Positions 16,523-62,000 of a stretch of 64,000 nucleotides of DNA are shown piece by piece (position 1 is the stretch's first letter; the number at the start of each line of letters is the position of its first letter). The stretch is from an uncultured bacterium (GTDB taxonomy: Bacteria > Armatimonadota > JACIXR01). The notes under the pieces were generated by a model that was not told the origin of the DNA, did no database searches, and saw only the letters and a list, made by a program, of their open reading frames with translations. The position numbers and the translations under genes are program-made. The DNA lies in the NCBI GenBank assembly GCA_938041455.1, contig CALITO010000021.1, positions 11,909 through 75,908 of the forward strand, given 5' to 3'.

Positions 16523-17755
16523 TTAAACCCCATTGTGCCTCTCGGAACTCCCTTTTATGCGATATATGTGGACATCATAGGGGCGGAAATCGTCTTCAAA
16601 AAGTCCTTTCACCAAGGGAATTTCTCGCTTTTCTCCTATTACCTCCGCCTTAGCTTTATTAGGAACATTTCTTAGCTGGAAAGAAGCTCTTGTAGGTGCG
16701 TTTCTCATCGCTACAGCGAAGAGATAGGTAGCGCCTCCATACCGCTTAACCATGGTATGGACGGGCACATCAGGGTTTTGGGAACGAACCTCCACCTCGT
16801 CCTTGAGGGAAGGACTATTTAAGATGGGAGCTAATTCCTGAATTTGCTTGTTGATTTGGGTAACCTCGGCAAGCATTTCGGGGTCCTCAAACAAGCCTGC
16901 TTCCACGAATTTCGGCTCAAACTGGTGAACGAAGTATATCAATCCTTGAGAACCGTGCACGAGTGCCATCCATACCTCTGCCTTCACTTGATAAGGTGTG
17001 GGCTTTTTCTCCAAATTGCTTATGCGTGTGCATTCGATACAGTTCCAAACTATTTTCTCTCCATCAGTTGATTTATTCCAATTGACCCAGGAAAAGAGCC
17101 TCATAACTCCCTTAGCAACATACCAAAGGAGGTTTTCATCGTTCAGACCTGCCACCGGATAGACATCGAAGGAGACGATGTCGCAACCTTTCACATATGT
17201 GAAGTAATCGTCGGGATGAGCACCCACCCCTCGTCCTATCCAGGTATCATTAGCGACACCCTGTCCCAAATTGAGGAGGATGGGACGGTCGGGATCGTTC
17301 AATTTCATCTTCTTATAGCGTTCAACGATTTCCTTGGGAGGGACAGGTCCACCATATATCGGATTGCCCTTTGCATCTTTCCCAATTACCTGTGCATTGT
17401 CAGGTTCATCTTGATGCATCCAGCCGACGATTATAGGGTCATCTTTATGACGAAGTCCTACCTCATTCTGCTCACAGATGACCATCATCCCCGCCTTACG
17501 AAGGGTCTCCAATTGTTCTTCCGTTGGTCCCTTCCACAAGCCAACATAAAGATTGAAGCCTGCCTTTTTGTAATGCTCCGCGTTATCGGGATTTTGTAGC
17601 CAAACCGCTACGGGAAAGAAACTAGGGTCCTCTGGGGGTCCTTTCTTCCAGCGGGCGTAGGGGTTGGTGGGCGTTTGTGCTCCGATGGTCAGCAAATATA
17701 CGCCACTTCCCAAGGCAAAAAGCATCACCAAAACAATCGTCCAGTTCATTTTCAT
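16523..17755 (-). CDS. Secreted TIM-barrel glycoside hydrolase-like protein (clan GH-A-like), function unknown
   Basis: There is an N-terminal signal peptide (MKMNWTIVLVMLFALGSGVYLL). VGWMHQDEPDN resembles the NEP acid/base motif of GH5-like enzymes. The start was chosen at the internal Met that begins the signal peptide. Confidence 0.35.
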   Translation of the reverse strand: MKMNWTIVLVMLFALGSGVYLLTIGAQTPTNPYARWKKGPPEDPSFFPVAVWLQNPDNAEHYKKAGFNLYVGLWKGPTEEQLETLRKAGMMVICEQNEVGLRHKDDPIIVGWMHQDEPDNAQVIGKDAKGNPIYGGPVPPKEIVERYKKMKLNDPDRPILLNLGQGVANDTWIGRGVGAHPDDYFTYVKGCDIVSFDVYPVAGLNDENLLWYVAKGVMRLFSWVNWNKSTDGEKIVWNCIECTRISNLEKKPTPYQVKAEVWMALVHGSQGLIYFVHQFEPKFVEAGLFEDPEMLAEVTQINKQIQELAPILNSPSLKDEVEVRSQNPDVPVHTMVKRYGGATYLFAVAMRNAPTRASFQLRNVPNKAKAEVIGEKREIPLVKGLFEDDFRPYDVHIYRIKGSSERHNGV

Positions 17756-17839
17756 CTCGTTCCCCTCCACAATATATTCTAATTCCTTTAATACAAAGCA
17801 ATTGTTAAATAATCAAGCAAAATTAAAATTAAGAAAAAG

Positions 17840-22145: not shown

Positions 22146-22178
22146 TTGACATTTTATTTTTCATTGCTATTATATAAT
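22146..22178 (+). promoter_or_regulatory. Sigma70-like promoter of the polyamine operon (-35 TTGACA 22146-22151, then -10 TATTAT 22168-22173 or TATAAT 22173-22178)
   Basis: Read directly from the sequence. It lies 65-95 nt upstream of the bpsA start. Confidence 0.5.
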
Positions 22179-22185
22179 TTATTGC

Positions 22186-22210
22186 AGGGATACCCCTATA
22201 GGGTATCCCT
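22186..22210. promoter_or_regulatory. Perfect 10-bp inverted repeat AGGGATACCC-ctata-GGGTATCCCT between the promoter and the RBS of the polyamine operon. It could be an operator or a 5'-UTR hairpin.
   Basis: Exact palindromic arms are read from the sequence, and the RBS AAGGAGG follows ~20 nt downstream. Confidence 0.5.
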
Positions 22211-22242
22211 AAAGTTCTATTTTATAAGGAGGTGATGCCCCA

Positions 22243-23301
22243 ATGAGAGATTTGCTTACAGATCTCAAAAAGAGAATGGATATAAGTGAACGAGATTTGG
22301 AGCGGTTAATTTCTGCTTTCCTGTCGACTAGTGATTTCTGGGAGGCTATAGCGGTGAGTCGCCTACCGTTCAATATGGTAGTGGAAATTAGTAAGCACCT
22401 TTACGAAAGGGGCATCATTTTCTTTGAGGACGAGGAGCAGGTCGTTCTAACTGATAAAGGTAAAAGATTGTTTGATTACGGAGTTACTCCCTTAAAAGGA
22501 CATCTATGTCCCAGTTGTGAGGGAAAAGGGATTGACCTCAGGGATTGGAAGGAACTGCTAAAGGTATATGAGGAGACAAAGGAGGGGCGTCCAGAACCGC
22601 TCTTGGAGTATGACCAGGGTTACTTAACGGCGAAATCCGTCATAGAGAGGATAGCCTTTGCAGACGGAAAGGGAGACATAAGGGGTAGGAAGGTGATTGT
22701 ATTGGGCGATGACGACCTATTAAGTATAGCTTTGGGACTAAGCGGATTACCAGAAGGAATAACCGTTCTGGAGGTGGATGAAAGACTGGTGGAGTTTATA
22801 GAAAGAACGGGCAAAAAGAGGGGGCTCAAGATAGAGGTAAGAAAACACGACCTTCGGTACCCCCTTCCAAATGACTTGCTAGGCGAATTTGATACATTTT
22901 TCACCGACCCAGTAGAGACCCTAGAGGGGTTAGGGGTCTTTATTGCGAGGGGCATCGCCTCCTTAAAAGGGGTTGGTAGTGCTGGCTATTTTGGGCTTAC
23001 TACCGCGGAAGCTTCTTTCAGGAAATGGCGGGATATAGAGAAAATGTTAGTGGACAAATTCGGCGTTGTGATAACCGATATCCTTTCCGATTTCTCGATC
23101 TATGAAAATTGGGATTATCTCCTTGAGAGTATAAGGAGGGATTTACCCCCCCTTAACCGAAAGCCAAATGTGCTGTGGTATAAGTCCTCCCTTTTCCGCA
23201 TAGAATTAGTGGAAGGTTATAGGAGTTTTAACGAAGAGGGCAAAGGTGAAATTTACATTGACCAAGAATCAATGGCTTGGATTAGGAGGGAAAAGAATTG
23301 A
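22243..23301 (+). CDS. bpsA: Branched-chain polyamine synthase BpsA-like aminopropyltransferase (DUF43 family)
   Basis: 352 aa. RKVIVLGDDDLLSIALGLSG carries the GDDDLxS signature of the DUF43/BpsA class. The gene is the first of the polyamine operon. Confidence 0.6.
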   Translation: MRDLLTDLKKRMDISERDLERLISAFLSTSDFWEAIAVSRLPFNMVVEISKHLYERGIIFFEDEEQVVLTDKGKRLFDYGVTPLKGHLCPSCEGKGIDLRDWKELLKVYEETKEGRPEPLLEYDQGYLTAKSVIERIAFADGKGDIRGRKVIVLGDDDLLSIALGLSGLPEGITVLEVDERLVEFIERTGKKRGLKIEVRKHDLRYPLPNDLLGEFDTFFTDPVETLEGLGVFIARGIASLKGVGSAGYFGLTTAEASFRKWRDIEKMLVDKFGVVITDILSDFSIYENWDYLLESIRRDLPPLNRKPNVLWYKSSLFRIELVEGYRSFNEEGKGEIYIDQESMAWIRREKN

Positions 23302-23762
23302 AGGGTTTCATACCAAATATGGCTATTCTTACCGCAGGGGCAGATGAGGGAGGTTCGGAATTGAACGCCTTGGATAATGCGCTTTTAAAGGCTGGTATAG
23401 GAAATTTGAATCTCCTCCCCGTTTCCAGTATACTGCCTCCCAAGGCGCAAATAACTTACGAGGTGCCTTTTATAGAAAAGGGCACACTTGTTCCGGTGGT
23501 CTTGGCTAAAATAATAAGCGGGAAGGAAGGTGAGAAGATAGCAGCTGCGATTGCGATAGGGGTAGGGGAAGATTTTGGGGTGATAATGGAGCATACAGGT
23601 AAAGGGGGGAAGGAAGAGATAGAGGGGGAGGCAAGGATTAAGGTAGAGGAGGCCTTCCGAGTAAGGGATATGGAATTTAAGGGCTTGCACACCATTTCCG
23701 TGGAACATACAGTTAAGAAGTTAGGCTGCGCCATCGCAGCCGCCATTCTTTGGTGGAGGTGA
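23298..23762 (+). CDS. pdaD: Pyruvoyl-dependent arginine decarboxylase PdaD (archaeal type)
   Basis: 154 aa. The Ser-Ser self-cleavage site in LLPVSSILPP is present, and the C-terminal ISVEHTVKKLGCAIAAAILWWR closely matches M. jannaschii PdaD (IAVEHTVEKLGCAFAAAALWYK). Confidence 0.85.
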   Translation: MKGFIPNMAILTAGADEGGSELNALDNALLKAGIGNLNLLPVSSILPPKAQITYEVPFIEKGTLVPVVLAKIISGKEGEKIAAAIAIGVGEDFGVIMEHTGKGGKEEIEGEARIKVEEAFRVRDMEFKGLHTISVEHTVKKLGCAIAAAILWWR

Positions 23763-23769
23763 TGGTTTT

Positions 23770-24126
23770 ATGGAGATGAAAAGTGTCGGAAGACACCTTG
23801 TCGTCGAGCTCTGGCATTGCCAGGAGCTCGACGACTCCCAAAAGTGTGAAGAGACGCTTAGAGAAGCGGTAAGACGAGCAGGTGCTACACTCTTAGACTT
23901 GAAGGTCCACCGCTTCAATCCCCATGGTCTGACGGGCATAGCAATAATCGCCGAGTCCCACATCTCCGTTCATACTTGGCCGGAGTTGAGCTATGCTGCT
24001 GTAGACATCTTTACCTGTGGAGATAAGGTGGACCCTGTTCGCGCCGTGGAACCTTTTGTGGAATGGCTTAAGCCCAAGCAGACGCAGATGCTCGAGATTC
24101 GCCGGGGTGTTATGAGAAATGGATGA
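23770..24126 (+). CDS. speH: S-adenosylmethionine decarboxylase proenzyme (small SpeH/SpeD class)
   Basis: 118 aa. GRHLVVELW...IAIIAESHISVHTWPE carries the E-S pyruvoyl processing site. Confidence 0.88.
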   Translation: MEMKSVGRHLVVELWHCQELDDSQKCEETLREAVRRAGATLLDLKVHRFNPHGLTGIAIIAESHISVHTWPELSYAAVDIFTCGDKVDPVRAVEPFVEWLKPKQTQMLEIRRGVMRNG

Positions 24127-24982
24127 TGACTGGTTAGAGGAGAGATTAAATAATTACGGGCAGAGATATAGAATAAAAAAACTCCTCTATAAAGAGAGGT
24201 CTCCCTTCCAGGAGATAGAAGTAGTGGAGACCTGGGACTGGGGAGCTATGCTCCTTTTGGATGGAGCAGTGCAAACGACAGAAAGGGATGAGTTCATATA
24301 TCACGAGATGCTTGTCCATCCTCCTTTGTTGCTTCACCCTGCCCCCAGGAAGGTTTTAATAGTAGGAGGAGGAGATGGAGGGGTTTTACGCCACTCCCTT
24401 CAACACCCCGTGGAGGAAATCTATATGGTGGAAATAGACGAGAAGGTGCTGGAGGTTTGCGAGAAATATATGCCCTCTATAGCAGGTGATTCTTTAAGGG
24501 ATGAAAGGGCAAGGGTATTAATAGAGGATGGCTTCGCCTTTTTGGAAGAAGGTGGTCTTAAATTTGATATAATAATCGTTGACTCCACTGACCCCATAGG
24601 AGAAGCCAAAAAGCTCTTTTCCAGGCGCTTCTATCAACTCGCCTATAACGCTTTGGAGAAGAACGGCATACTGGTCACCCAAAGCGGTTCTCTTTTCTAT
24701 CAACCCCAGCTCCTCAGGGATGTTTATTATAAGCTTTCGTCTCTTTTCCCTCACTTGGCTGTGATCATGATGCTCGTTCCCACTTATCCCGGCGTCGTAT
24801 GGACAGCAACCCTGGGAAGCAAACTTTATGACCCCTTCCAGCTCACCCCTGAGGAATGGCTACAAAGAGCAAAAGAAAGAAAACTTTCTCCTAAATATTG
24901 GACTGCCAAATTACAATTCTTCCCCCAAAACTTTCCCCTCCTTCAAAAAGTTCTGCAAGGGGGAACTCCTTTTGCCTCTTAA
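24119..24982 (+). CDS. speE: Spermidine synthase / polyamine aminopropyltransferase SpeE
   Basis: VLIVGGGDGGVLR, DIIIVDSTDPIG and the tetramerisation N-terminus are present. Confidence 0.9.
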   Translation: MDDDWLEERLNNYGQRYRIKKLLYKERSPFQEIEVVETWDWGAMLLLDGAVQTTERDEFIYHEMLVHPPLLLHPAPRKVLIVGGGDGGVLRHSLQHPVEEIYMVEIDEKVLEVCEKYMPSIAGDSLRDERARVLIEDGFAFLEEGGLKFDIIIVDSTDPIGEAKKLFSRRFYQLAYNALEKNGILVTQSGSLFYQPQLLRDVYYKLSSLFPHLAVIMMLVPTYPGVVWTATLGSKLYDPFQLTPEEWLQRAKERKLSPKYWTAKLQFFPQNFPLLQKVLQGGTPFAS

Positions 24983-25817
24983 GCCTGCGAAGATTCCCTT
25001 TATATCGGCGAGGAAATGGGAGGAAAGGGAGGCGAATATAGGGGATTGCAAAATCATCTGTGGCATCCCTTATGAGAAAACCGAGAGCTTTCGGGGTGGT
25101 GCGGGATTAGCCCCCTCAATAATAAGGGAATTTTCTCATAGTTTGGAATCCTACAGCATAATATCGGGCAGGGATTTGGGAGATATAAACATCTTTGATG
25201 TGGGAGACCTGGACGTTTCCCATTTACAACCCGAAGAAATGGTAAGGGAAGTTGAGGCTCTTGTGGGAAGCTTTCCCTTTGCTTTCCCCATCCTTTTTGG
25301 AGGAGAGCATACCATTACTCTCGGGGCTATAAGAGCTTTGGCAAAGCGTTTTTCCCCCCTTTATGTAATCTCCTTAGACGCTCACCCGGATTTTCGTTCC
25401 TCATATGAGGGAAAGACAATTTGCCACGCCACGGTGATGAAGCGGGTTTCAGAAATAGTGGGTAAAGAGCGATTGCTCTTTCTGGGCTTAAGAACAGCTA
25501 CATCTGAGGAGTGGCAGGAACTGAAAAGCTGTTATATTGTATCTCCGCAACCCATAACTTTCCCATCCGAATTGAAGGATAAACCACTCTATATTTCTTT
25601 GGATATAGATGTGCTTGACCCAAGCTGTGCCCCTGGGACGGGAAATCCTGAACCCGGGGGATGGAGTTTTGAGGAGCTACTAAGCTTTCTCCTCTCTCTG
25701 AAGGGTTATAATGTGGTTGGGTTGGATATAGCAGAGGTTTCCCCTCCCTTAGACCCAAGTGGTATAACCTCCGTTTCCGCTGCCAAGATCGCAAGGGAAA
25801 CCCTTCTTTTATTTTAA
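24972..25817 (+). CDS. speB: Agmatinase / aminopropylagmatine ureohydrolase (arginase family) SpeB
   Basis: The Mn-binding motifs GGEHTITLG, SLDAHPDF and SLDIDVLDP are present. The conserved N-terminus begins at ANIGDCKIICGIPYE. A TTG at 24972 sits 9-10 nt downstream of the AAGGGGG RBS and gives ~281 aa. The ORF-track ATG at 24828 would overlap speE by 155 nt and is probably artefactual. Confidence 0.8.
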   Translation: MPLKPAKIPFISARKWEEREANIGDCKIICGIPYEKTESFRGGAGLAPSIIREFSHSLESYSIISGRDLGDINIFDVGDLDVSHLQPEEMVREVEALVGSFPFAFPILFGGEHTITLGAIRALAKRFSPLYVISLDAHPDFRSSYEGKTICHATVMKRVSEIVGKERLLFLGLRTATSEEWQELKSCYIVSPQPITFPSELKDKPLYISLDIDVLDPSCAPGTGNPEPGGWSFEELLSFLLSLKGYNVVGLDIAEVSPPLDPSGITSVSAAKIARETLLLF

Positions 25818-32325: not shown

Positions 32326-34500
32326 TTGAATATGAAGACTTTGTGGTTTGTCCTTACTATTGTGGCGTGTGCTTTCCCTCTTGTATTAACTCGTGAGGGG
32401 AGAGATGAGCTTCTGCCAGTTTTGGGGAGAAGGTGTGCCCTTCTCGCGAGGGAAAACGGACAATTTGAGGTTTGGATTTACCCTTTCAAGGCTTTTTATA
32501 ATGGGGAAATTTCCTTCCTGAAAGATGATAGGGAAATTCCTTTTCACCAGATTCGGCGAAAAATTCTTGTTTCTCCTGCCGTTTCCTCAATAATCCTCAG
32601 TGGCGAAGTTGAAGGAAGGATAGACCTACTCTGTTCCCACAAGGAACCACTCTGTCTTCTTCAATTTAATATACAAAGGGATACAGCGCGAAAGCTCCTC
32701 ATAACCTTTGAACCTTCCCTCCAACTGATGTGGCCTGCCTCCACTGAGGGAGAGGTGCGATGGCGTAGGGAAACCCCTAATAAGTTGATTTTTTCACTTC
32801 AGACAAAGGGAAAAGAACTCCAATGCGTTCTCACTTCTAATAAACCTTTAAAATTTAGCGAAGGAAAACTGGAAGTAGATGTGGATGATGGGGGTGTGAG
32901 TATCGCTCTCAGCGGAGGGGTTGATAACCTGGGAGAAGCGCAGTCGCTAATTGGGCGATATCTGGAGAATTATGGTAGATTATTGAAGGAGAATGAAGCG
33001 GTTTACAAGGATTTCTTCAACAAGACAACGGAATTGAAGAGCTCCAATGCTTTATTAAATGAGGCCTTCAACTGGGCTAAGGTCGGCTTGGAGAAATGTT
33101 TTGTGGAAACCTCTTTGGGGAAAGGGTTTGTCGCTGGCTACCATATGGCAGGTCAGGGAAATCGTCCAGGCTTCGCCTGGTTCTTCGGTAGAGACTCCGC
33201 CTGGATGAGTTTTGCTGCACTAAGCATAGGTAGTTTCTCCCAGGTTAAGGAAAACCTAATGTTGCAGAAAAGATATCAAATTAAAGAAGGGGTTAACAAG
33301 GGCAAGATTTATCATGAACTGTCTTTGGCTCACGATTTTGTTCCAGATCCTTCTTATGCCTATCCAGCGGGGGATTCCACGCCCTTTTATGTGATAGTAT
33401 GCGCTGAGTATGCCAAGTGGTCAGGGGATTTGGCTTTCTTGAAGGAGAATTGGGAAAGTATTTTGGAAGCTATGACATGGTGTGAGAGGATGGATGTAGA
33501 TGGGGACCTTTTAATAGACAATCCCCCCGCAGGACATCAGTGGTTTGATTATGGGGAGAAGAATATGATAGACCTCGTAGCTATATGGCAAAAAGCTTTA
33601 GAAGAGGGCGCCTGGATAGCAGAAATCTTGGGGAAAGAGAATTTAAAAGCGAGGTGGAAAGAGAAGGCGAAGAAGGTGAAGGAGATATTGAACCAAGATT
33701 TTTGGAACGAGAAAAGGGGCTATTTCTACGATAGAAAGCTTCCCGATGGCTCTCTTTTAGACCTCGCCACCTGCAATCCCCTCATACCTATGCTTTGGCG
33801 CCAGATTGAAGAGGGGAAAGCGCAAAAAGCGCTTTCCCTCCTAAATTCTCCTTCGTTTACCACTGATTGGGGGGTTAGAACAACCGCCGAAGGAGAAAAG
33901 ATTTACAATCCCCGGGGATATCACGAGGGGAGGGTTTGGCCCCTTGTAACCGGCTGGGCGTCCTGGGCGCAATTCATTAATTGTCATCCGGAGGAAGGCT
34001 ATAAGGCGCTCTTAAGCAATGCTAAAATGACTAGGGACTTCTGTCTCGGTTATATTCCGGAGATTTTAGATGGGGATAGTTATGTGGCCGCAGGCCCCCC
34101 TCTACAAGGTTGGTCTGAGGCTATGGTCATTCTGCCCTTCACAAAGGGCATGTTGGGTTTAGAGCCAAACGCTTTGGAGAAAAAACTTAAATTGCTCCTG
34201 CATATTCCTAAGGATATGGACTTTTTAAAGGTAAATAATCTCAGGATAGGTGAAAGTCGGTGGGACATAGAATGGAGGAAAGTAAGGGATCAGGCAACGC
34301 TCAGCCTCAATAAAAAAGGAGGGGGTGAGTTTTCGCTTAATCTGGAGATCGCCCTAGAAGAATTTAGTGGAGCTCGGGCCCTGGTAGACGGTCAAAGAGC
34401 AGGGCTAAGAAAGTTCGTAAAGCCTTGCGGATATCATACCTCTTTAACCACCCCTTTCAAGGAAAAAGCAGTTATAAGTATCTATTATTCAGCCAAATGA
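32326..34500 (+). CDS. Secreted (alpha/alpha)6-barrel glycoside hydrolase, amylo-alpha-1,6-glucosidase / GDE_C (GH63/GH133-like) family
   Basis: 724 aa with a signal peptide. FVAGYHMAGQGNRPGFAWFFGRDSAWMSFAAL and GYHEGRVWPLVTGW are typical of the glycogen-debranching C-terminal-domain-like family. Confidence 0.55.
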   Translation: MNMKTLWFVLTIVACAFPLVLTREGRDELLPVLGRRCALLARENGQFEVWIYPFKAFYNGEISFLKDDREIPFHQIRRKILVSPAVSSIILSGEVEGRIDLLCSHKEPLCLLQFNIQRDTARKLLITFEPSLQLMWPASTEGEVRWRRETPNKLIFSLQTKGKELQCVLTSNKPLKFSEGKLEVDVDDGGVSIALSGGVDNLGEAQSLIGRYLENYGRLLKENEAVYKDFFNKTTELKSSNALLNEAFNWAKVGLEKCFVETSLGKGFVAGYHMAGQGNRPGFAWFFGRDSAWMSFAALSIGSFSQVKENLMLQKRYQIKEGVNKGKIYHELSLAHDFVPDPSYAYPAGDSTPFYVIVCAEYAKWSGDLAFLKENWESILEAMTWCERMDVDGDLLIDNPPAGHQWFDYGEKNMIDLVAIWQKALEEGAWIAEILGKENLKARWKEKAKKVKEILNQDFWNEKRGYFYDRKLPDGSLLDLATCNPLIPMLWRQIEEGKAQKALSLLNSPSFTTDWGVRTTAEGEKIYNPRGYHEGRVWPLVTGWASWAQFINCHPEEGYKALLSNAKMTRDFCLGYIPEILDGDSYVAAGPPLQGWSEAMVILPFTKGMLGLEPNALEKKLKLLLHIPKDMDFLKVNNLRIGESRWDIEWRKVRDQATLSLNKKGGGEFSLNLEIALEEFSGARALVDGQRAGLRKFVKPCGYHTSLTTPFKEKAVISIYYSAK

Positions 34501-34513
34501 TGAGAGCGTAGAA

Positions 34514-36448
34514 CTATGGGGTTCCTGGGTTGTAGGCGAAGCCGTGGAAGCCCAAGAGTGCTTGGAGTATAGCCCAAAACCCATTCCCTATTACCTCGCC
34601 CATAATCAACCCCAAGAAAAAAGGGAGAGCTTTTCTGTAAGCCTTAAGTCCGCCAATCCTCAAGGCAGACACCTTGCACAACCAACCTAAAAAGAAGGAG
34701 AACCAGAGGTAATTCATAGTGAGGGTGTTTGCTGCTGCATAGCCGAGGGGATGGAAAGGCCAGAAGGCAAAGCGGAGGCGCATAAAACCGAGAAAGATAG
34801 TGAAGACCATCCCTATCACTGTATAGCCAAAGCGTTGGGGATCGGGTTGAGAAGAAACATTTAACCAGGAGGCGAGTTCTCGGAAGGCCCAGACCCCGCT
34901 TTCCACGCGCCATCTATCAGCCTTTGCCGAGCCTGCCCCGTTGAGGTAGTAGAGATGGAGGGTAGTGGGCACTGCTACCGCTACACAGGCCATTATGGCC
35001 AGCCACACTCCCAATGTTAAAAGCCAGCCTTTCTTTGCCACAGGGTCGCTGAATTTAACTGCTTCTAACTCGGAGGGCATAATATAGCCCCTGCCGTCTA
35101 CTCCCAAAAACTTCAAAGAGGAAAGGATTGTTAAATTTTTCTCGCCTAAACCTTCTACACCCAAAGCAGAAACAGCGATGTTGCTTGGATGGTCAGGGAC
35201 ATGGATCCAGGTAAGTCCCCCCTCTGCTCTCATCCTCGAAAGGACAAGGGAGAATATAAGGAAGATGAGGATAAAGAATAAGGAATACAGGAGGGAAAGC
35301 CCCACCCTTTTAAGCCAAAATAAAAGGATTAAGAGCGATAGAAGAGCTCCAATCAGGGTGGATTTATATGAGAGTGGTTCGGATGAATCGTCCATTTCCT
35401 TTTTACCCAATGCTTTTAGCAAAATATCCCTCAAATGTCCTCTGGCGGTCCAAATCATTAACCCGAAAAGGGCAAGGAACGCGCCGAGGGATTGTTCCTC
35501 CAGCCCGGGAAAGTGAGCCCAGAACCCACTCTCCCTACCCGCGCCGAAGCCCATAGCGGAGCCGAAAACTAACTCCACTTTACCTAAAAGGTAGAAAAAC
35601 CAGCAACTGAAAGCTACTTCAGCGGAGACAAGATAGGCAAGACCCAAAATAGAAGGATAGAGACTCAGTTCAAGCCATTGCATAGCGTTCCAAGGTGGTT
35701 GGGGGAAGAAACGCATCAAATTGTTATGAAGTAGCACTAAAGGGGGGATAGACGGTCTTATATGATATATTCCATAGGATATTTGGGAGAGTAATGCCAG
35801 ACCCATTCCGGTTAAAGTCAAGGGATGCCTTAGGAAAGAGTTGAAGAAATGTCCTTTTTCCGGCTCCCGGAGCATCTCCAAAGGAACGATTACCAGGGGA
35901 AAGGTAAGTTTTTCCCCTTCCACCCACTGTTTACGAAAAATCACTCCTACACACCAGAAGAAAAAATAAAGGGCTAGGCAGAAGATGAGCCAGTTTGCCA
36001 AGGGAAAAACCCAATGACGCCAGGGTATCCTCCCTCCCCCGTCGAAGAACAATCTAATTGCCTCCTCCTCTTGTAAGTATAGATATTGAGGAAGGTAAGG
36101 GAGGAATTTATTCCAATGTAGTTCTATTTGGGAGAAGTATTTTAAATCCCCAATGCTCGGTATAAGGAATTGGACGAGTCCGAAGGAGGAGAAGGGAGCA
36201 GAGACCATTCCCATCACATAGATTGCTATAAGTTCTCCTGAGGAGAGGGCTTTGTGCGGAAGATATTTCCTAATAACGCTATTGATAATAATGATTAAAA
36301 ATAGGATGAACATTACCCCTATGGGTGGTGGGGGAATAGCATAATCACAAGTCCAGTTGAAGACTTCTACGAAGGGACAAAGATAGCCTACGAGAGCGGA
36401 GAGGAGGACACCTAGGAGGAGGGAACGGAAGGTTAACCGAAACCCCAT
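34514..36448 (-). CDS. Large polytopic integral membrane protein (644 aa, >12 predicted TM helices), function unknown
   Basis: Hydrophobic segments are spaced throughout, and there is no recognisable transporter signature. Confidence 0.5.
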   Translation of the reverse strand: MGFRLTFRSLLLGVLLSALVGYLCPFVEVFNWTCDYAIPPPPIGVMFILFLIIIINSVIRKYLPHKALSSGELIAIYVMGMVSAPFSSFGLVQFLIPSIGDLKYFSQIELHWNKFLPYLPQYLYLQEEEAIRLFFDGGGRIPWRHWVFPLANWLIFCLALYFFFWCVGVIFRKQWVEGEKLTFPLVIVPLEMLREPEKGHFFNSFLRHPLTLTGMGLALLSQISYGIYHIRPSIPPLVLLHNNLMRFFPQPPWNAMQWLELSLYPSILGLAYLVSAEVAFSCWFFYLLGKVELVFGSAMGFGAGRESGFWAHFPGLEEQSLGAFLALFGLMIWTARGHLRDILLKALGKKEMDDSSEPLSYKSTLIGALLSLLILLFWLKRVGLSLLYSLFFILIFLIFSLVLSRMRAEGGLTWIHVPDHPSNIAVSALGVEGLGEKNLTILSSLKFLGVDGRGYIMPSELEAVKFSDPVAKKGWLLTLGVWLAIMACVAVAVPTTLHLYYLNGAGSAKADRWRVESGVWAFRELASWLNVSSQPDPQRFGYTVIGMVFTIFLGFMRLRFAFWPFHPLGYAAANTLTMNYLWFSFFLGWLCKVSALRIGGLKAYRKALPFFLGLIMGEVIGNGFWAILQALLGFHGFAYNPGTP

Positions 36449-39369: not shown

Positions 39370-41040
39370 CTATGGTGAGGGGACTCTCTTACCCCACAAG
39401 ACCTTCGCGAAATCTGCTATAAGGTCATATCTCTGAAGCCAAGTGGTATACATAAAGCCGAGCACATTTTTGTATTTTTGGGAAAGTTTCCCCCATTGTT
39501 GGACATCCTCTACATTAGGGGCATCATAATAGCAAGCGATTAGCACCTTGAACCCCTCTTTGGAGAAAAACTCCAAGCTTTCTTCCCTTGGTTCGCCGCC
39601 CCATACAGCCATAACTAAATCCTTCGGAACATATTTCCAAGAGCCTGTGAAATCGCCTTCCACAAGATAATAATCCTTCCTTGCATTATGATTGGGGTCA
39701 AACATATCCGACCATACATAGATTTCCGCCTTTGGATTATATTTTCTAAGAATGTCAACTTGTTTGGTGACGCATTCTCCCAGAAGTTTTGCCATATCTT
39801 TACCAGAGCAAGCGGAACAGGTGCCCCCCATTCTAACCTCATCCATATTCAGCAACACCTTTTTATACTTCAGAGTTTCCCACAACAACTTCGCCTCGTG
39901 TTCGAAGATTTCATAAACTTCTGGCTCTGCCATACAAACCGTTACCTGCCATTCATAAATAATCATTGGATGATACCAACTTACCCGTAGTCTTTGTCCA
40001 TCTTTTATGCGACTATTTGGAAGGATTTTGATCTTCGGATATGGTCTATCAAAACTGCGGAAAGCAAAACCGGGGTCAACCAGTGGTTCATAATCCTTTC
40101 CCTCTTCATATTTTTCTCCAGTTTCCTCATCCTTCACGACTATAGGCGTGCCGGGACGTCTTAGCACATTTAACGGACCTATTTCCTCAATCGTCCAGTC
40201 ATCTAGCCAGAACTTGCCCGACTTAGCTCCCCAAACACCCGCATAAACACGAACCTTTTTGAACTCCAAACTATTAAAAATCATCGTTAGTTTCATCCAA
40301 TCAGCTGTGGCTGGAATATTAAAAGTTAGCGGTGCCAAGTCTCTATTGTCCGCTAAGACCAGCATATTGAAACATCCCTGGGGTTGAAGATCCTCAGTCT
40401 TCACCCATATACTTAAGCGATAACATCTATATGGCTTAAGAGAGATTTCCTGCATTACACGACCGTGCCCATATGGATTAGCGGTGAAATTCTCAAATCT
40501 TATGGAGGCATTCCCGCTCCTTTTCACTTTTTCATCTACGAAGCTTACCTCTCCGGGTTGATCATGAAAACCGAAACCTTTGAAGACATTGCCTGTGAAC
40601 TCTTCAAAGTTTCCGTTAACGATTTCCACATAGGAATCAGGAACAAAGGTGGCTTCTCCTCCCTGGACTATGAAGAGGGCATCTTTTACCGGCATCCCCT
40701 CCGCAAGATACCTATTATGTTCTAAAATACCCCCTCCATAGCCTATGGAGAAAACAGAGGGAATCAATTCGAGTTTCAATCGGTCACAGTAGTTCTTGAG
40801 TTCTTTGAGATTTTCGAAATACAACTTGTCCTTTTTACATAATGAATCGAGCCCTGCAGAAAGGACGACCCCGTTATAATTGTTTTCTTTAGCTTCTTTT
40901 AAAATGTTTTTTATCTTCTGCAGTTCCTCTTCTTTTTGCAAGTCAAACCCGAAAATCCATATGAAACGGTCCCTTGCACTCTGGCAGAAGGAAAAGTTCA
41001 CGAGCAAGAGAATGTTAAAAATAATAACTAAACTCTTCAT
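39370..41040 (-). CDS. Secreted carbohydrate-active protein with a central CBM4/9-like carbohydrate-binding module
   Basis: 556 aa with a signal peptide. The segment NGNFEEF...RSGNASIRFEN...W has a CBM_4_9-like signature. The flanking regions are of unknown catalytic type. Confidence 0.4.
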   Translation of the reverse strand: MKSLVIIFNILLLVNFSFCQSARDRFIWIFGFDLQKEEELQKIKNILKEAKENNYNGVVLSAGLDSLCKKDKLYFENLKELKNYCDRLKLELIPSVFSIGYGGGILEHNRYLAEGMPVKDALFIVQGGEATFVPDSYVEIVNGNFEEFTGNVFKGFGFHDQPGEVSFVDEKVKRSGNASIRFENFTANPYGHGRVMQEISLKPYRCYRLSIWVKTEDLQPQGCFNMLVLADNRDLAPLTFNIPATADWMKLTMIFNSLEFKKVRVYAGVWGAKSGKFWLDDWTIEEIGPLNVLRRPGTPIVVKDEETGEKYEEGKDYEPLVDPGFAFRSFDRPYPKIKILPNSRIKDGQRLRVSWYHPMIIYEWQVTVCMAEPEVYEIFEHEAKLLWETLKYKKVLLNMDEVRMGGTCSACSGKDMAKLLGECVTKQVDILRKYNPKAEIYVWSDMFDPNHNARKDYYLVEGDFTGSWKYVPKDLVMAVWGGEPREESLEFFSKEGFKVLIACYYDAPNVEDVQQWGKLSQKYKNVLGFMYTTWLQRYDLIADFAKVLWGKRVPSP

Positions 41041-51631: not shown

Positions 51632-53209
51632 TTATTTTACTTTCTTTAGTATAAACACCTCCTCCTTATCAGAAAAGAGGGGGAGTTTACCTTCTTTCAC
51701 CTCCATTCTTGCATTTTTTTCCTCCTTACATTTCACAGGGTCAAGGAACCTCACTTCAAAGCTTCCAGAGAGGCCTTCCAGGATAACATTTCCTCCCTCT
51801 GGTAGATAAAGCAACAGGACGGACTTATCCTCTGAGGCTAGGCAAATGGGGTGTTTTTCTCCTTCCAATTTAAAATAGGGTTTCATATTCCACCACTGGA
51901 GGGAGGTTATCACCCGATACATAAATTCCAAATAGGGATAGAGTTTGCCAGCTGGTTTCATAAGAGTTCCCATATTGCTGAAATGTATGCCCCGTTCCCC
52001 TATCTCGCGAGGAGGGGTCACTTCGTCGCCATAGGAGAGGTAGGCTCCGCTCAGTAGAATCGTCCACGAACCCCTCCGCATATTATCAATATCGAGCCCT
52101 GCCTCCCCTTGATAGCCGTTTCCCTCCCAGATACATTCCTGTGCAAGTATTGGTTTTTCTGCTACTTCACGAATTTCCTTCATAGTGTTCCCATACTTCC
52201 AATAGTCCCGATCGGTAAGTTTGTCCTGGAGGGTGAAGTAGTCATAAAGTTGGGAAGAAGGGATTTGCAAAGCTTTCCTACTATAATTCCGGGAGTGAAC
52301 ACTTATGAGTCTCTTCCAAGGGTCATATTTTCTGATCAAGCTGAGTATTTGGAGGACTTCCTCAGGTTTAAATCCTTCCTCCCATTCCGATATCGGTTGG
52401 AAAGTAACATTATAAAAACCTGACCAGCGGGCGGTCCAATATCTTATGAAATTTTCCCATTCCTCTTCGGGCATCCTTGGCACATTATTTGTTCCCCCGA
52501 AGATGTTAAAAGGAATGAGGAACATATTCCTTTTTTTAAGGGCGAATATAACCTTATCCATATTCCTCCAGAAGCGGAGGTCATAGCGAGAGAAATCAAA
52601 TCCACTTCCTGTGTTAACCCAGGGAGCGCGGTAACCTACGCCTGGCGTCTCACTTAAACCACAGTGGGGGCCAACGATTGTGTTGAAGCCATATTTTTGA
52701 AGGAAATCGAGGGTTTCCTCCAAAACGCCAAGTTCGGGGAGGACATCCACCTCTCCAGCTTCGAAGGCGAACATATAAAAGGGAGTTCCATCCGCATAGG
52801 AGAACCAAATTTTATTCTTTTGGTAAATTTTCAAAGGTCCCTTTATTTTAGAAGGGATACAGATAAAGTTCCCTTCCAAGGGTTTTTTTGAAGCATCGGA
52901 GAAATAAATTTTATACCTCCACTCGCCTTCTCTGTCGGGCATAAAACGAATTTTCCAAACTGTTCCCCCATCGTAAAAGCCGTAGAGCTTCTGCTCGCTC
53001 TTGCTCGGGATGTGGGTGAATTCCCCTATAAGTAAAACATCTTGAAAAGGGTTGTCATAGATCTTCTCATTTTTCAATGAAAGCTCCAACAAGTCCCATT
53101 TTCCTACCTTTACATCTCCCTTAGCCGGCAGGGAAAATAGCAAAATAGTAAGGAATAAAGGTAATTTTTTAAATATGCACTTCCCAGAAAAGCCACCTTT
53201 CATAGCATT
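51632..53209 (-). CDS. Secreted putative glycoside hydrolase (DUF5060 N-terminal domain plus DUF4038-like TIM barrel)
   Basis: It has a signal peptide (MKGGFSGKCIFKKLPLFLTILLFSLPAKG), then a beta-sandwich N-domain and a TIM-barrel-like core. The start was chosen at the internal Met, which removes the overlap with the next gene. Confidence 0.4.
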   Translation of the reverse strand, partial: NAMKGGFSGKCIFKKLPLFLTILLFSLPAKGDVKVGKWDLLELSLKNEKIYDNPFQDVLLIGEFTHIPSKSEQKLYGFYDGGTVWKIRFMPDREGEWRYKIYFSDASKKPLEGNFICIPSKIKGPLKIYQKNKIWFSYADGTPFYMFAFEAGEVDVLPELGVLEETLDFLQKYGFNTIVGPHCGLSETPGVGYRAPWVNTGSGFDFSRYDLRFWRNMDKVIFALKKRNMFLIPFNIFGGTNNVPRMPEEEWENFIRYWTARWSGFYNVTFQPISEWEEGFKPEEVLQILSLIRKYDPWKRLISVHSRNYSRKALQIPSSQLYDYFTLQDKLTDRDYWKYGNTMKEIREVAEKPILAQECIWEGNGYQGEAGLDIDNMRRGSWTILLSGAYLSYGDEVTPPREIGERGIHFSNMGTLMKPAGKLYPYLEFMYRVITSLQWWNMKPYFKLEGEKHPICLASEDKSVLLLYLPEGGNVILEGLSGSFEVRFLDPVKCKEEKNARMEVKEGKLPLFSDKEEVFILKKVK

Positions 53210-53222
53210 CATCTCCTTTCTC

Positions 53223-53954
53223 CTATCTTTCCGGACCAATGCTTCTGAAGAGATACTCACACAGTTTCAAGTTATCCAGCTTCTCTATTGCGAAGTTGTC
53301 CCAGAAAACAGAAGTTCCAAGGGCAATCAATTCTCCTTTACCTATGCTTCTACTCGCTCCCAGAATTATATTACTACCAGCGATATCGCTAAGGGCGCTT
53401 TCCTCTCCCAGAATCAAAACCTCTACTTCTTCTCCAATTTCAAGGGAAGCGCTACAGGGGAAGAATATTTGGGAAACGCCCTTCAAGCCGGGGGAGAACT
53501 TGGATGTCGTTATCAAAAGGGGGTCATTATCCATACAGTGGAGAGGGTCTATCACCTCGTCATCCCTGAATTTTATCCCCCATTCCTCTGTTAGTGTATT
53601 ACAGATACCCGCGACTCTATCGGAACAGCGATAATAAGCGGTTACTATGACCCTTCCACCTGCTTCCATAAACCTCTTTATGTCCGCTTTTTCCCGAGGG
53701 GAAAAGGGTTCTTCTGGATAGCAGAGAACCAAGATATCGAAAGCGGAAAGGAACTTAAATGCTAACTGTTCCTCTCTTTCCTCAAAATTTATTCCCCATT
53801 CTTTCAAATAAGTTGCGAGTTTGGAGAAATAGTAATGGTCGGATAAGCTGAATTCCCTATGGCGAACATCCCAAAGCAATTTTCTCACTACTCTACTACA
53901 CCCCCTCTTCCCATCTATGTGGTAAGAGGTGGGTTGTATACATTCTATAGGCAT
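53223..53954 (-). CDS. Hypothetical protein (243 aa), possibly class I glutamine amidotransferase-like/ThuA-like fold
   Basis: It is an ORF with no strong motif. The start is uncertain, and a GTG at ~53891 would remove the 59-nt overlap with dgt. Confidence 0.3.
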   Translation of the reverse strand: MPIECIQPTSYHIDGKRGCSRVVRKLLWDVRHREFSLSDHYYFSKLATYLKEWGINFEEREEQLAFKFLSAFDILVLCYPEEPFSPREKADIKRFMEAGGRVIVTAYYRCSDRVAGICNTLTEEWGIKFRDDEVIDPLHCMDNDPLLITTSKFSPGLKGVSQIFFPCSASLEIGEEVEVLILGEESALSDIAGSNIILGASRSIGKGELIALGTSVFWDNFAIEKLDNLKLCEYLFRSIGPER

Positions 53955-57993: not shown

Positions 57994-59016
57994 ATGGCAA
58001 GAAGAATCAGCTGTGAGCAAATTTCTCCTCTTCTCTCCGCTTATCTTGATGGTGAGCTTTCCAAGGCGGAGAGGCAGAGCGTGGAGTGGCACCTCAGGGA
58101 GTGCGAGGCGTGCCGAGGCGAGTTAAGGGAGCTTGAAAAGGCCAAAAAATTCGCCCTCCAACTCGGCGAGATCCAGCCTCCCATCTCCCTCAGGCAGAAG
58201 ATTATGGCAAGGGTTGAGAAGGAGAAGGAGTGCGAGACCGTTCGCCCCTTGCTCGGAGCTTATCTGGATGAGGAAATTGTCGAGGCGGAACGGAAGCATA
58301 TAGAGCTTCATCTGATCAGGTGTGCCGATTGCAGGAAGGAGTTGGAAGCGACGAAGAAGGTGAGAGAAATCCTCCGAACCCTTCCCGAGGTGGAGCTTCC
58401 CTCCTACTCAAGGGCAAGAATCTACGCCTCCATACAAAGAAGACCCGTCTTTGTGAGGAGGTTCGCCCTTGGTTTTGCCACCTTGGCGGCTGCCGCTTCC
58501 CTGGTTTTCTTCGCTCTACCCCTCCACCGCCCCACCCCTCCCCCTCATGTGCCCATCATCGCCCAGCAAAGCGCCCCTTCTACTATCTCCCAAACCGAGC
58601 CCTTGCTCCCTAAGGGTGCCAAGTCTTCCACAAAAGCGGTCGTTCCAGGCTACCGAAAGCCTACTCTGGCGGTCATCCCTTCGGTAGCTTCCCCGCGGGA
58701 AGAGCAACCCATAACAATTACCCCACCTGTAAAGGAGGAGGAAGAAAAACTCGTTATAGGTGAGACCCGCCCCGTTGTCCTACCCCAGCCTAGCGAGATG
58801 CCATCTGCATCTGAGGCAAAGGAGGAACCACAAGAGGTAGCTCCTATGCCCCCCACTTCTCCTACACCCGTAAAGGTAGCTGTAAAGCTGGAACCTTCCC
58901 TCTCCGATGTCCTAAAGGAGATAACAACCTCCGTGGATAAACCATCTATTCCTTCAAAGCTTACCGAGCGACTGGATAAAAGCATAGTGATAGGGGTAGT
59001 AAGGGTAGAGTTTTAA
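57994..59016 (+). CDS. Membrane-spanning anti-sigma factor with two tandem zf-HC2 (HxxxCxxC) domains and a Pro/Glu-rich extracytoplasmic C-terminal region
   Basis: The first zf-HC2 reads SCEQISPLLSAYLDGELSKAERQSVEWHLRECEACRGE and the second reads CETVRPLLGAYLDEEIVEAERKHIELHLIRCADCRKE. A TM helix (FALGFATLAAAASLVFFALPL) and a Pro-rich tail follow. Confidence 0.65.
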   Translation: MARRISCEQISPLLSAYLDGELSKAERQSVEWHLRECEACRGELRELEKAKKFALQLGEIQPPISLRQKIMARVEKEKECETVRPLLGAYLDEEIVEAERKHIELHLIRCADCRKELEATKKVREILRTLPEVELPSYSRARIYASIQRRPVFVRRFALGFATLAAAASLVFFALPLHRPTPPPHVPIIAQQSAPSTISQTEPLLPKGAKSSTKAVVPGYRKPTLAVIPSVASPREEQPITITPPVKEEEEKLVIGETRPVVLPQPSEMPSASEAKEEPQEVAPMPPTSPTPVKVAVKLEPSLSDVLKEITTSVDKPSIPSKLTERLDKSIVIGVVRVEF

Positions 59017-59037: not shown

Positions 59038-62000
59038 GTGAGAGTCCCGATGAAGCGTATCTTTATTTTAGGTTTCATTGTTTTGCTTACCTCTTATGTG
59101 TTTTCTCTCGAGGAGGCGTCAAGCGATGACTTTTCCTTGGGCAATGCCCTGGCAATCACCAGCAACGCCATTTCCTCCAGTGCCTCCCTACCATCTGTCC
59201 AGGGTGCAGTCCTCCATACTGATACTCTAAGGGTGGTCAAGGGCGGTATCCTGGCTCTATCCCATAGGGGGATAGTCCAAGGAAGTGAGAAGGTGATAGC
59301 AAATGGACGCTTTCTCAAGCGGGATGTTGACTACCTCATAGATTATGCTAATGGGACGCTCATCCTCTCTGGGGAAGTGAAAGCCACTACACTCATCATC
59401 TCTTATCTATACGACCCTAATAACCAGAATCAGCCCGCAGGCGGGTTACCACTTCAATTAGCTCTGACCGGGGGCAATTCCACCATTCTAAACCTCCTTA
59501 CATATTTCCGCCCCGGCTCCCTTGGGCAAAATGGGGAAGAAAGTTGGTTAGTCGGTAGCCATTTCACCTCCAAACTGGGCTCTAATACCACTTTAAAGAG
59601 CCTCCTCTTTCTCAGTAGAACTACCGCTCCAAAGAGTTATGTAGTGGGTTTGGCGAGGAGTAACGCTGTTCCTACTACCGAGCAAAAAGGGAAAGCTATG
59701 GTGCATTGGATGGATATGAATTTGGGTAAAGGCAAGCTAAGTCTCTTATTCCAGAACATAGATAAAGATTTCTCCGTGCCTCAGGAGATACCCAACAATC
59801 TGAATGGTAACGATATATCCTTCCTCAAGCAGGAGGCCGGTACAAAGAAGATAGGAGTTGGTTATCAGGGTTCCAATCTCAGTCTTTCCTTCGCTCGGCA
59901 AACCGTTGACCCCCAAACGAGAGGAGACCAAGGGGTAGCAAGGGAAAAGGGGTTAACCAAGCAGATATTCGCTGGTGAATACAAGTTGTCCGATACCCTT
60001 TCCTTTTCTGCTCTATTGAAATCCGCTACCGATGGAAAGGGAGAAGGCTTTCTCAAGCGGATAGAATTAAGGGGCAGGGATGAGGAGTTCCTTCGCTTCA
60101 CTCACCAGCATATTTCCCCCAACTTCGTTAGGGGAGGGAGTTTGAACGAACCCGAGGCGGGCATATGGGCGAAAGAGGTAGGAGTAAGCAGAGAGATTAT
60201 CGAGCTTTCCAAGAGGCTTCTTCCCAACCTTTCCCTGAATCTTTCCCAGACGAAGATAAGGGATGAGAAGGGCGGGATAGAGCGGCTGAATTGGAATTTG
60301 CAAGGTGCGAACTTTTCTATAGCTGTTAGAAATCAGGAGGTCGGCAGGGATTTTGCTCGCTTCGGCAATCTAACTGAGGGTGATGCTGGTCAGCTTGCCA
60401 AGGAGAGAGGGTTGGTGAGGCGGACCATAGAAGGTGCTTTAAACCTCTCTCCCAAATTGCAAACCTCCTTTTCCCTCGCCAGTATAAATGATGGCAAAGA
60501 AGGCTGGCGAGGACATAATCCGCAATTGAAGGGCGATATCTGGGATATTTCCTTCTCCAAAAGTCACTTCAGCGAGGGCTTCAGAAGATTTGGTGATTTG
60601 ACCGACCCCGAGAAGCAAAGGTTCGCCAACGAGTGGGATATAAGCAAGTCCTTGCTCAAGGGCAACTTTAAACTCGATAATTTACTGCCCGGGCTCACTC
60701 TTTCCCTCGTCTCTCGCAAGTTGGGAGATTCTAAGGGTGGGCTTGAAGGCAAAAGTGTGGAGCTCAAACTGAAGGACCAACCCATTTTCCGCTTCTCCAC
60801 CCAGAGGATAGACCCCGCGTTCACGAGATTTGGAGACCTTGGAGAAGAAGATAAGGATCGCCTCGCTCAAGAGAGGGCTGCTGAGAAAAAAGACATCTTT
60901 CTTGCACTACCCATTTCCCAAAACCTCGCTTTTTCCACCTCCATAACTAAAGTGGATAGTTTGGATACCACGAGAAGTGATGCGAGTTGGGGTAAGTCCA
61001 CCCTCCACACCATAAACAACTTATCCTGGACAGGCAAGGACAGCATAAAAGCCTTCCTCACCTGGGACGCTACCAGGCAGGAAGGCGATGTGAGGAGAAC
61101 GAACGATATCTACAACCTGATAGTTGAGAAATCCTTCAGTAACGCTAATCTCAAGGTTCAACAAATGCAAGGAATTAGAACAGAGGGAGATAAGCAATTC
61201 CGCTCCATCCTCACAGTTTTGAACCTCCAGCAGACGCTGAAGGGGAATGCTTCTTACAGTATTAACTTAAAGCACAACAAGCTTGAGAACGGCAATACTA
61301 TAGAAGAGGGCAATCTTAATTTACAAGCTCCTTTGCTTAAAGGAAACGCCGGGACCATCGGCTTTTCCTTTAAGGAAAGTGCAGAGCATAGCTTCAAGAG
61401 CATTTCCCTTGTTCAACCTCTGGATTCCCAATCCCAATTCAAGGGAGAGGTTGCGAGGATACGCCAGGGCAACCAAGAGGGTAAAAAGGAAGAACTCTCC
61501 TTAACGAGGACATTCCTTCCCGGGCTCACCAGCAACCTCGCCTATGGTATTCAATCACTTGGTAGTCACTCCTCTTCTTATCGCCTTCTCCAAACCACTT
61601 ATCAACCCCAGGGCGCTCCCTACAAAATAAGTTATATGATTAAGGATAGGAGTGGAGGGAATAACACTACAACTAGGGCGATAGATATTACCTACCCCTT
61701 TGAGGGTAAAAATTTCACCCTCTCTATGTTGAAGAACCCCGAGGACCAAAATGGCAATCCACTTCATACCAAGAGGGTAGCTATTAATTTCCAAGGTTCT
61801 CCCGTATTATCCGGTCAGTATATTCTGGATACCAATTATATGAATGGGAAATTGAACAAACAATATTCCCTCCAATTCACCCCTTCCCAAAAGTTTAACC
61901 TCAAGCTTTCCCTTGTTGACAATGTGCCCGACCCAAATCAGAAGCTCCTGAGGAAACTCAACTGGGAAATTGCCTTCCCTCTGAACGAAAAGCTTTCTTT

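Follow-up and report, generated by a model that had tools for sequence, protein, structure and literature searches.

Five co-directional genes, bpsA, pdaD, speH, speE, and speB, occupy positions 22243-25817 of the window (the whole 64-kb stretch of DNA that was analyzed). They probably form a single-promoter, translationally coupled operon, which by itself would suffice to make branched polyamines from arginine and S-adenosylmethionine (SAM) in an uncultured, apparently thermophilic bacterium. Since the pathway is known and the same operon was found in many other thermophilic bacteria, the finding is sound but ordinary; the enzymes are also known already, and little new biology is added. The operon would nevertheless be a clean example, from an uncultured lineage of bacteria, of the entire arginine-to-branched-polyamine route gathered in a single transcription unit.

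The open reading frames, all on the plus strand, were found where the preliminary description had placed them, and its gene identities, order, and tight coupling were borne out by family-model scores and by very short junctions (Table 1). In profile searches, each of the five proteins scored above the curated threshold of its family. The claim that the genes overlap by 4-11 nt throughout was correct for three junctions (bpsA/pdaD, 4 nt; speH/speE, 8 nt; speE/speB, 11 nt), whereas pdaD and speH are separated by a 7-nt gap. The start of speB is most likely the TTG at 24972, rather than the upstream ATG at 24828 of the mechanical ORF list, in line with the gene caller's placement on the same contig.

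Table 1. Predicted genes and upstream elements of the polyamine operon (window coordinates).
Feature	Coordinates	Strand	Description	Basis or position
Promoter (predicted)	22146..22173	+	sigma-70-type, near-consensus: TTGACA, 16 nt, TG-n-TATTAT	consensus match
Inverted repeat	22186..22210	+	10-bp perfect repeat, AGGGATACCC-ctata-GGGTATCCCT	between promoter and RBS
bpsA	22243..23301	+	N4-bis(aminopropyl)spermidine synthase family aminopropyltransferase, 352 aa	family model, solved homologues
pdaD	23298..23762	+	pyruvoyl-dependent arginine decarboxylase, 154 aa, TTG start	family model, self-cleavage site
speH	23770..24126	+	class 1 pyruvoyl S-adenosylmethionine decarboxylase proenzyme, 118 aa	family model, cleavage site
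speE	24119..24982	+	spermidine / N1-aminopropylagmatine synthase-type aminopropyltransferase, 287 aa	family models, motifs
speB	24972..25817	+	agmatinase-family ureohydrolase, 281 aa, TTG start	family model, gene call

Assignment of the 352-residue protein to the BpsA family of aminopropyltransferases (EC 2.5.1.128), predicted to aminopropylate spermidine at N4, was supported by several comparisons. Residues 104-344 matched PF01861 (BpsA_C) with an E-value of 2.4e-84, and residues 1-344, which include the N-terminal domain, aligned with the Thermococcus kodakarensis enzyme (Tk-BpsA, 5XNC; E 6.7e-93, ~46% identity). Further full-length matches among solved structures were the P. furiosus-type 2QM3 and Thermus BpsA (Tt-BpsA, 6J27/6J28), the window protein being nearer to the archaeal structures than to Tt-BpsA (E 6e-74). 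The GDDDLxS motif reads VLGDDDLLS here, and its GDDD (G155-D156-D157-D158) was invariant in 84 of 84 homologues. In BpsA, the GDDD (G157-D160 in Tk-BpsA) positions the aminopropyl group of decarboxylated SAM (dcSAM). Residues reported to be essential in BpsA are, in Tk numbering, G157-D160, D225, E259, Y290, and Y316 (PMC12979288). The acceptor-site residues D225, E259, Y290, and Y316 correspond to D222, E256, Y287, and Y313 of the window protein, and the equivalents of the essential residues were invariant or nearly so across the 84 family members. The preliminary description had named loss of the Thermococcus catalytic residues as grounds for doubt; their retention sets the protein apart from generic DUF43 proteins.

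The carrier tail of the window BpsA is partly substituted and extended, compared with that of Tk-BpsA. Three of the five Glu/Asp residues that make up the acidic C-terminal carrier cluster in Tk-BpsA are kept (E336, D340, and E342), and the other two are replaced by I339 and Q341. Every one of the 74 homologues with an alignment reaching these positions has the D-x-E pair formed by D340 and E342. The protein additionally ends in an extra hydrophobic, basic tail (AWIRREKN); this 8-10 residue extension is common to the clade of the window and to some Actinomycetota and Bacillota.

The remaining four proteins were assigned in the same manner. PdaD scored 145.6 bits against TIGR00286 (PvlArgDC; cutoff 107) and matched the M. 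jannaschii PvlArgDC 1N2M (E 1.3e-35), with an intact self-cleavage site, S43|S44, aligned with Mj S52|S53, and with active-site residues N38 and E98 equivalent to Mj N47 and E109. SpeH scored 141.8 bits against TIGR03330 (AdoMetDC; cutoff 75.65) and matched the T. maritima AdoMetDC (1VR7/1TLU, E 4e-32), with which its intact E62|S63 cleavage site, H68, and C83 align. SpeE exceeded the cutoffs of both NF002010 (polyamine aminopropyltransferase; 318.7 bits, cutoff 260) and TIGR00417 (281.9 bits, cutoff 249.55), has the B. subtilis SpeE 1IY9 as its best solved relative (E 1.5e-66), and carries GGGDGG and DSTDP motifs. SpeB scored 218.2 bits against the agmatinase model TIGR01230 (cutoff 174.3), matched 3LHL (E 2.4e-49) and 3PZL (E 6e-40), and contains the Mn-site motifs GGEH, DAHPD, and SLDIDVLDP, in agreement with a ureohydrolase fold.

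These families and their conserved residues support the overall route proposed in the preliminary description, from arginine through agmatine and spermidine to N4-aminopropylated spermidine. PdaD would decarboxylate arginine to agmatine, SpeH would supply dcSAM, and SpeE and SpeB would jointly convert agmatine to spermidine. BpsA would then transfer one or two aminopropyl groups from dcSAM onto the spermidine N4, giving N4-aminopropylspermidine and N4-bis(aminopropyl)spermidine, presumably through the ping-pong mechanism known from the BpsA enzymes of Thermococcus and Thermus; the branched products may serve in the thermoprotection of nucleic acids. The "long-chain" polyamines that had also been suggested were not supported, the operon having just one SpeE and no sign of penta- or hexa-amine chain extension. 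Because this SpeE is B. subtilis-like, and not like the broad-specificity Thermus enzyme 1UIR, a prediction of long-chain polyamines of the Thermus kind would be unfounded. Thermus thermophilus is otherwise similar, being a thermophilic bacterium in which spermidine is made by way of agmatine and then branched by BpsA. The T. kodakarensis pathway (PdaD, TK0149; SpeE, TK0147; SpeB-like, TK0882; BpsA, TK1691) comprises the same enzyme families with the same predicted chemistry, but in an archaeal rather than a bacterial host, and its locus tags lie far apart, whereas all five genes of the window are in one operon.

The order in which SpeE and SpeB act is not readable from sequence; more likely, SpeE acts first, converting agmatine to N1-aminopropylagmatine, and SpeB follows. 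The classical order, in which SpeB would hydrolyze agmatine to putrescine, SpeE would aminopropylate putrescine, and BpsA would then branch spermidine, is possible, if somewhat unlikely. It agrees with the passing scores of SpeB and SpeE on the agmatinase (TIGR01230) and spermidine synthase (TIGR00417) equivalogs, and with the annotation of their nearest solved relatives as agmatinase and spermidine synthase. The SpeE scores point to an aminopropyltransferase in general, and no known rule of sequence tells enzymes that accept agmatine from those that accept putrescine. Agmatine is an acceptor for the majority of bacterial SpeE enzymes that have been assayed: of 18 bacterial spermidine synthases, 17 aminopropylated it, and the N1-aminopropylagmatine route was proposed to be the standard one in the presence of an arginine decarboxylase (Li et al. 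2024, PMC11107197). Thermus and Thermococcus, which are thermophiles with this gene set, also use the N1-aminopropylagmatine order. One order need not preclude the other.

The product spectrum of BpsA is uncertain, since the flexible C-terminal region was found in swap experiments to set the substrate and product range and ratios (PMC12979288), and this region differs here from both characterized enzymes. The divergent tail, which bears the extension and keeps three of the five carrier acids of Tk-BpsA, might cause the enzyme to stop at the tetraamine N4-aminopropylspermidine or to branch other acceptors. We consider this doubtful, as the core acceptor-site residues and the universal D-x-E pair are intact, and both characterized enzymes yield N4-bis(aminopropyl)spermidine despite unlike tails. 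Some small class 1 AdoMetDC homologues are arginine or ornithine decarboxylases, and a SpeH neofunctionalized in this way would leave the operon without a source of dcSAM. This reading was rejected as highly improbable: SpeH scores well above the AdoMetDC equivalog cutoff and aligns with the T. maritima enzyme at the cleavage site and at H68 and C83, a dedicated PdaD is already present in the operon, and both operon aminopropyltransferases need dcSAM, with speH and speE overlapping.

The host is a bacterium, and apparently a thermophilic one, as judged from the window's genes and composition. Bacterial markers in the window include tmRNA, MutS, FtsH, and GlyS-beta, the MutS being 56-59% identical to Armatimonadota proteins and 87-90% identical to entries labelled just "bacterium". 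The thermophilic lifestyle predicted in the preliminary description gained independent backing from proteome composition and tRNA G+C. The IVYWREL fraction was 0.444 over 19,852 aa of window proteins, which corresponds to ~81 C by the Zeldovich regression, a formula that is noisy on small samples and was applied here to 64 kb only. The tRNA G+C was 63%, compared with 46.8% for the window. Per-locus IVYWREL estimates for 80 related loci were too noisy for classification, with known thermophiles ranging from 40 to 128 C.

The same five-gene order was found in at least 12 loci. Five of these (L001, L082, L083, L084, and L085) belong to the clade of the window and seven (L002, L058, L063, L070, L074, L077, and L080) to five further lineages of bacteria, so that at least five bacterial phyla share the arrangement. 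Operons of identical content and order occur in public MAGs of Ca. Subteraquimicrobium (Actinomycetota), Armatimonadota SKYB36, Acetothermia/Bipolaricaulota, Chloroflexota, and Clostridia 41_269, with proteins 40-50% identical to those of the window. Partial versions were found in Aquificota, Thermococci, Asgard archaea, and Thermoplasmata. The label "archaeal-type" does not fit an operon that is widespread in bacterial phyla, and a bacterial BpsA, that of Thermus, has already been characterized (PMC12979288). Among the papers searched, none described the bpsA-pdaD-speH-speE-speB operon. The arrangement could aid MAG annotation and could be used as a genomic marker often associated with thermophily; as a compact cassette, it could also be used to produce branched polyamines heterologously.

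Recent acquisition of the operon, or at least of bpsA and pdaD, from a hyperthermophilic archaeon would accord with archaea being the first source of characterized BpsA and PdaD, and with a BpsA identity to Thermococcus (~46%) equal to that to most bacterial homologues. A likely horizontal origin of these two genes had indeed been proposed. When the operon genes were compared with the 50 genes of the window, however, none was an outlier: G+C (0.447-0.524) and GC3 (0.45-0.57) lie inside the range of neighboring genes, and leave-one-out codon-usage ranks were 7, 8, 10, 32, and 50 of 50, all within ~2 SD. In phylogenies, where archaeal placement of BpsA and PdaD had been at issue, the two are surrounded by sequences from bacteria. 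The sister group of BpsA was wholly bacterial in 95 of 100 NJ bootstraps, and PdaD groups with the same bacterial neighbors. The operon is also kept across the whole clade, within which BpsA has diverged to 60-76% identity. On grounds of typical composition, bacterial tree placement, and clade-wide conservation, recent archaeal transfer was rejected, its probability being very small. Nor is PdaD otherwise archaeal or chlamydial, as had been stated, its closest named homologues being from heliobacteria, Anoxybacter, Sulfobacillus, and other Bacillota, and from Actinomycetota. These results correct the notion that bacterial PdaD and BpsA imply archaeal ancestry.

Upstream of bpsA, the predicted promoter matches 11 of 12 consensus positions and includes an extended -10 TG. 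Its hexamers are unchanged in five clade relatives, although the genes upstream differ there. The inverted repeat that follows occurs once in the window (chance expectation, 0.02). An Rfam search of the operon leader gave no meaningful match, and the palindrome was not found at 80 more distant bpsA loci among the matches listed; unlike the window, the MAG operons of identical order are without it, and it is specific to the window's clade. The palindrome is a candidate operator or 5′-UTR hairpin. It is rather improbable, though conceivable, that the five genes, under a strong promoter of their own, form a regulated, portable thermoadaptation cassette that has moved between bacterial phyla, with the palindrome as an undescribed operator or leader. 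If so, the palindrome would control branched-polyamine synthesis, and interphylum transfer would be reflected in the BpsA and PdaD trees, which agree in their groupings and place the window with Actinomycetota (Ca. Aquicultoria), the host MutS being nearest to Armatimonadota. The palindrome is predicted to fold as an RNA hairpin and is kept in clade relatives (L082-L086); the promoter and palindrome before bpsA, both conserved in the clade, are a small, unexplained additional feature of the locus.

The operon claimed in the preliminary description was found to be real. Five same-direction open reading frames (ORFs) appear in a mechanical ORF list at the expected place, and each matches the expected family (see table). 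Along the operon, neighbouring genes first overlap by 4 nt, are then separated by 7 nt, and finally overlap by 8 and by 11 nt, so that overlaps are present at three junctions rather than throughout, and a Shine-Dalgarno-like purine run precedes each junction. Gene calling on the public contig that matches the window starts speB with TTG. No paralogues of the five genes were found elsewhere within the window. The operon is a further example of a known pathway, with every component already known and all enzymes belonging to known families. The observation was thus confirmed, while its interpretation was supported only in part, failing on the distribution of PdaD, archaeal import and long-chain synthesis.

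Features of the operon, its upstream region and other parts of the window
Feature	Position	Strand	Length	Match or remark
tmRNA gene and tRNA cluster	983-1802
Large ORF	16523-17770	-	415 aa
Promoter, palindrome and ribosome-binding site (RBS)	22146-22242			upstream of bpsA; promoter near-consensus, RBS strong
Perfect inverted repeat	22186-22210		10 bp	AGGGATACCC-ctata-GGGTATCCCT; between promoter and RBS
Operon	22243-25817	+		bpsA, pdaD, speH, speE, speB
bpsA		+	352 aa	PF01861 BpsA_C, E 2.4e-84
CxxC pair in BpsA	about 22507-22518			C89 and C92
pdaD		+	154 aa	PvlArgDC; TIGR00286 145.6 bits (cutoff 107)
speH		+	118 aa	AdoMet_dc; TIGR03330 141.8 (cutoff 75.65)
speE		+	287 aa	spermidine-synthase domains; NF002010 318.7 (cutoff 260)
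speB	start equivalent to 24972	+	281 aa	arginase fold; agmatinase TIGR01230 218.2 (cutoff 174.3)
Glycoside-hydrolase-like genes and DUF6785/DUF6784 membrane protein	32326-36448; 51632-53260
Large ORF	39370-41040	-	556 aa
zf-HC2 anti-sigma-like gene	57994-59016
Large ORF	59038-62286	+	1082 aa

Residues 1 to 344 of the window BpsA align with the solved BpsA of Thermococcus kodakarensis (5XNC, E 6.7e-93), and further matches were obtained to the Pyrococcus-type structure 2QM3 and to Thermus BpsA (6J27/6J28). A 2026 review of the field (PMC12979288) lists as functional residues the GDDD motif (G157-D160) and, around the acceptor, D225, E259, Y290 and Y316. Their window counterparts (G155-D158, D222, E256, Y287 and Y313) are invariant or nearly so among 84 BpsA homologues, indicating that the protein is no generic DUF43 protein devoid of the catalytic residues of the Thermococcus enzyme, a doubt raised in the preliminary description. 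According to the same review, five C-terminal acidic residues carry the aminopropyl group, and the C-terminal tail tunes the substrate and product range. The window tail is acidic at three of the five carrier positions (E336, D340 and E342), of which D340 and E342 are kept in all homologues whose aligned sequence extends that far, and it has an added AWIRREKN, typical of its clade. Because the tail tunes this range, the exact product mix can only be inferred from the sequence. The N-terminal half also contains a CxxC pair, which is found unchanged in 84/84 homologues examined and is not among the catalytic residues given in the consulted part of the review.

PdaD is alignable to M. jannaschii PvlArgDC, with the self-cleavage site between Ser43 and Ser44 and residues equivalent to Asn47 and Glu109 kept, and SpeH to T. 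maritima AdoMetDC, with Glu62/Ser63, His68 and Cys83 kept. SpeE is nearest to B. subtilis SpeE (1IY9, E 1.5e-66), the Thermus enzyme being less close, and SpeB, in which the ureohydrolase metal motifs are present, to clostridial and Thermoplasma agmatinases. In the best-supported reading, PdaD would supply agmatine and SpeH decarboxylated SAM, SpeE and SpeB together would convert agmatine to spermidine, and BpsA would transfer one or two aminopropyl groups onto N4 of spermidine. The proposed route from arginine to N4-aminopropylation is supported as to its predicted enzymes and overall course. The sequence itself gives no order for the SpeE and SpeB steps; passage through N1-aminopropylagmatine is favoured because of precedent in Thermus and Thermococcus, and because 17/18 bacterial spermidine synthases aminopropylate agmatine (PMC11107197). 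No indication was seen of linear long-chain polyamine synthesis, long-chain polyamines having also been suggested in the preliminary description.

The window encodes tmRNA, MutS, FtsH and the beta subunit of bacterial GlyRS, and the host is therefore a bacterium. Its MutS relatives comprise a group, 87-90% identical, annotated only as "bacterium", followed at 56-59% by Armatimonadota, including Ca. Fervidibacter; this uncultured lineage is of uncertain phylum. The thermophilic lifestyle predicted from the operon agrees with two measures independent of it. The IVYWREL fraction (0.444; 50 ORFs, 19,852 aa) corresponds to about 81 C by the Zeldovich regression, which is read solely as "thermophile" because small samples make the formula noisy, and the G+C content of five tRNAs is 63%, against 46.8% for the window. 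These tRNA genes (Phe, Asp, Val, Glu, Lys; 57-68% G+C, window 47%) form a tight opposite-strand cluster after the tmRNA gene (tag ANHSYALAA). The glycoside-hydrolase-like genes (GDE_C/MGH1-like; apiosidase-like with DUF5060) and the accompanying membrane protein are consistent with a host that degrades polysaccharides, as thermophilic Armatimonadota do. The three large ORFs have no Pfam match, and the 1082- and 556-aa ORFs also lack an NCBIfam match; the former, which follows the anti-sigma-like gene, is unusually poor in IVYWREL residues (fraction 0.357).

A horizontal origin of pdaD and bpsA had been proposed, with pdaD described as otherwise archaeal or chlamydial. Operon GC (0.447-0.524) and GC3 (0.45-0.57) lie inside the spread of other window genes, and the leave-one-out codon-usage ranks of the five genes are 7, 8, 10, 32 and 50 of 50. 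In a neighbour-joining tree built from 84 BpsA sequences, monophyly of the window clade was recovered in 100/100 replicates, and its sister group was all bacterial in 95/100. The closest named PdaD relatives outside the clade belong to heliobacteria, Anoxybacter, Sulfobacillus and further Bacillota; among archaeal matches the nearest is Methanotorris (49%). A small tree places PdaD with the Actinomycetota (Ca. Aquicultoria) with which BpsA also groups. The description of pdaD as otherwise archaeal or chlamydial thus does not hold, and composition, the BpsA tree and the PdaD relatives reveal no sign of recent archaeal import. An older exchange among bacterial phyla may have occurred: BpsA and PdaD point to Actinomycetota whereas MutS points to Armatimonadota, but the host placement is too uncertain for more than a possibility.

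The predicted promoter upstream of bpsA (TTGACA, 16 nt, TG-n-TATTAT) is followed by a palindrome that occurs once in the window. Promoter, palindrome and RBS are kept in five clade relatives, although the upstream genes differ and BpsA is only 60-72% identical. The palindrome is not present at the 80 distant bpsA loci listed, and an Rfam search with it gave no match; it may be an operator or may form a 5′-UTR hairpin.

The gene order was compared across 80 genome loci among the matches listed in a BpsA profile search, against which the five window proteins were then run by tblastn. Among these, the identical order was found in Ca. Subteraquimicrobium, Armatimonadota, Acetothermia/Bipolaricaulota (three loci), Chloroflexota and a Clostridia MAG. 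Some Thermococci and additional Armatimonadota show bpsA-pdaD-speH-speE, and bpsA-pdaD-speE-speB was seen in Geothermocultoraceae and speB-speE-bpsA in Desulfurobacteriaceae; the genes are arranged in other ways in loci from Asgard archaea, Thermoproteota and Thermoplasmata. In every close relative of the window that was sampled, the operon is complete and the gene after it is the same convergent M42 peptidase gene. NCBI names such BpsA proteins "bis-aminopropyl spermidine synthase family protein", and no description of the five-gene operon as such was found in the literature searched.

BpsA homologues in which every core catalytic residue is kept also occur at listed loci (L-numbers) from lineages and habitats that are not obviously thermophilic: Acidobacteriota (L073), groundwater Deltaproteobacteria (L065), Dadabacteria (L029/L060), Planctomycetia (L051/L061), Ignavibacteriales (L059) and Spirochaetia (L048). 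The ORFs of L073 have a mesophile-like IVYWREL fraction of 0.355, from 1380 aa only. These loci sit uneasily with the statement in PMC12979288 that bpsA is restricted to thermophiles. At three Methanothermococcus loci (L018, L019 and L050), bpsA is followed about 3-4.5 kb further downstream by another, divergent BpsA-like ORF, which shares about 32-33% identity with the window BpsA and may be a paralogue.
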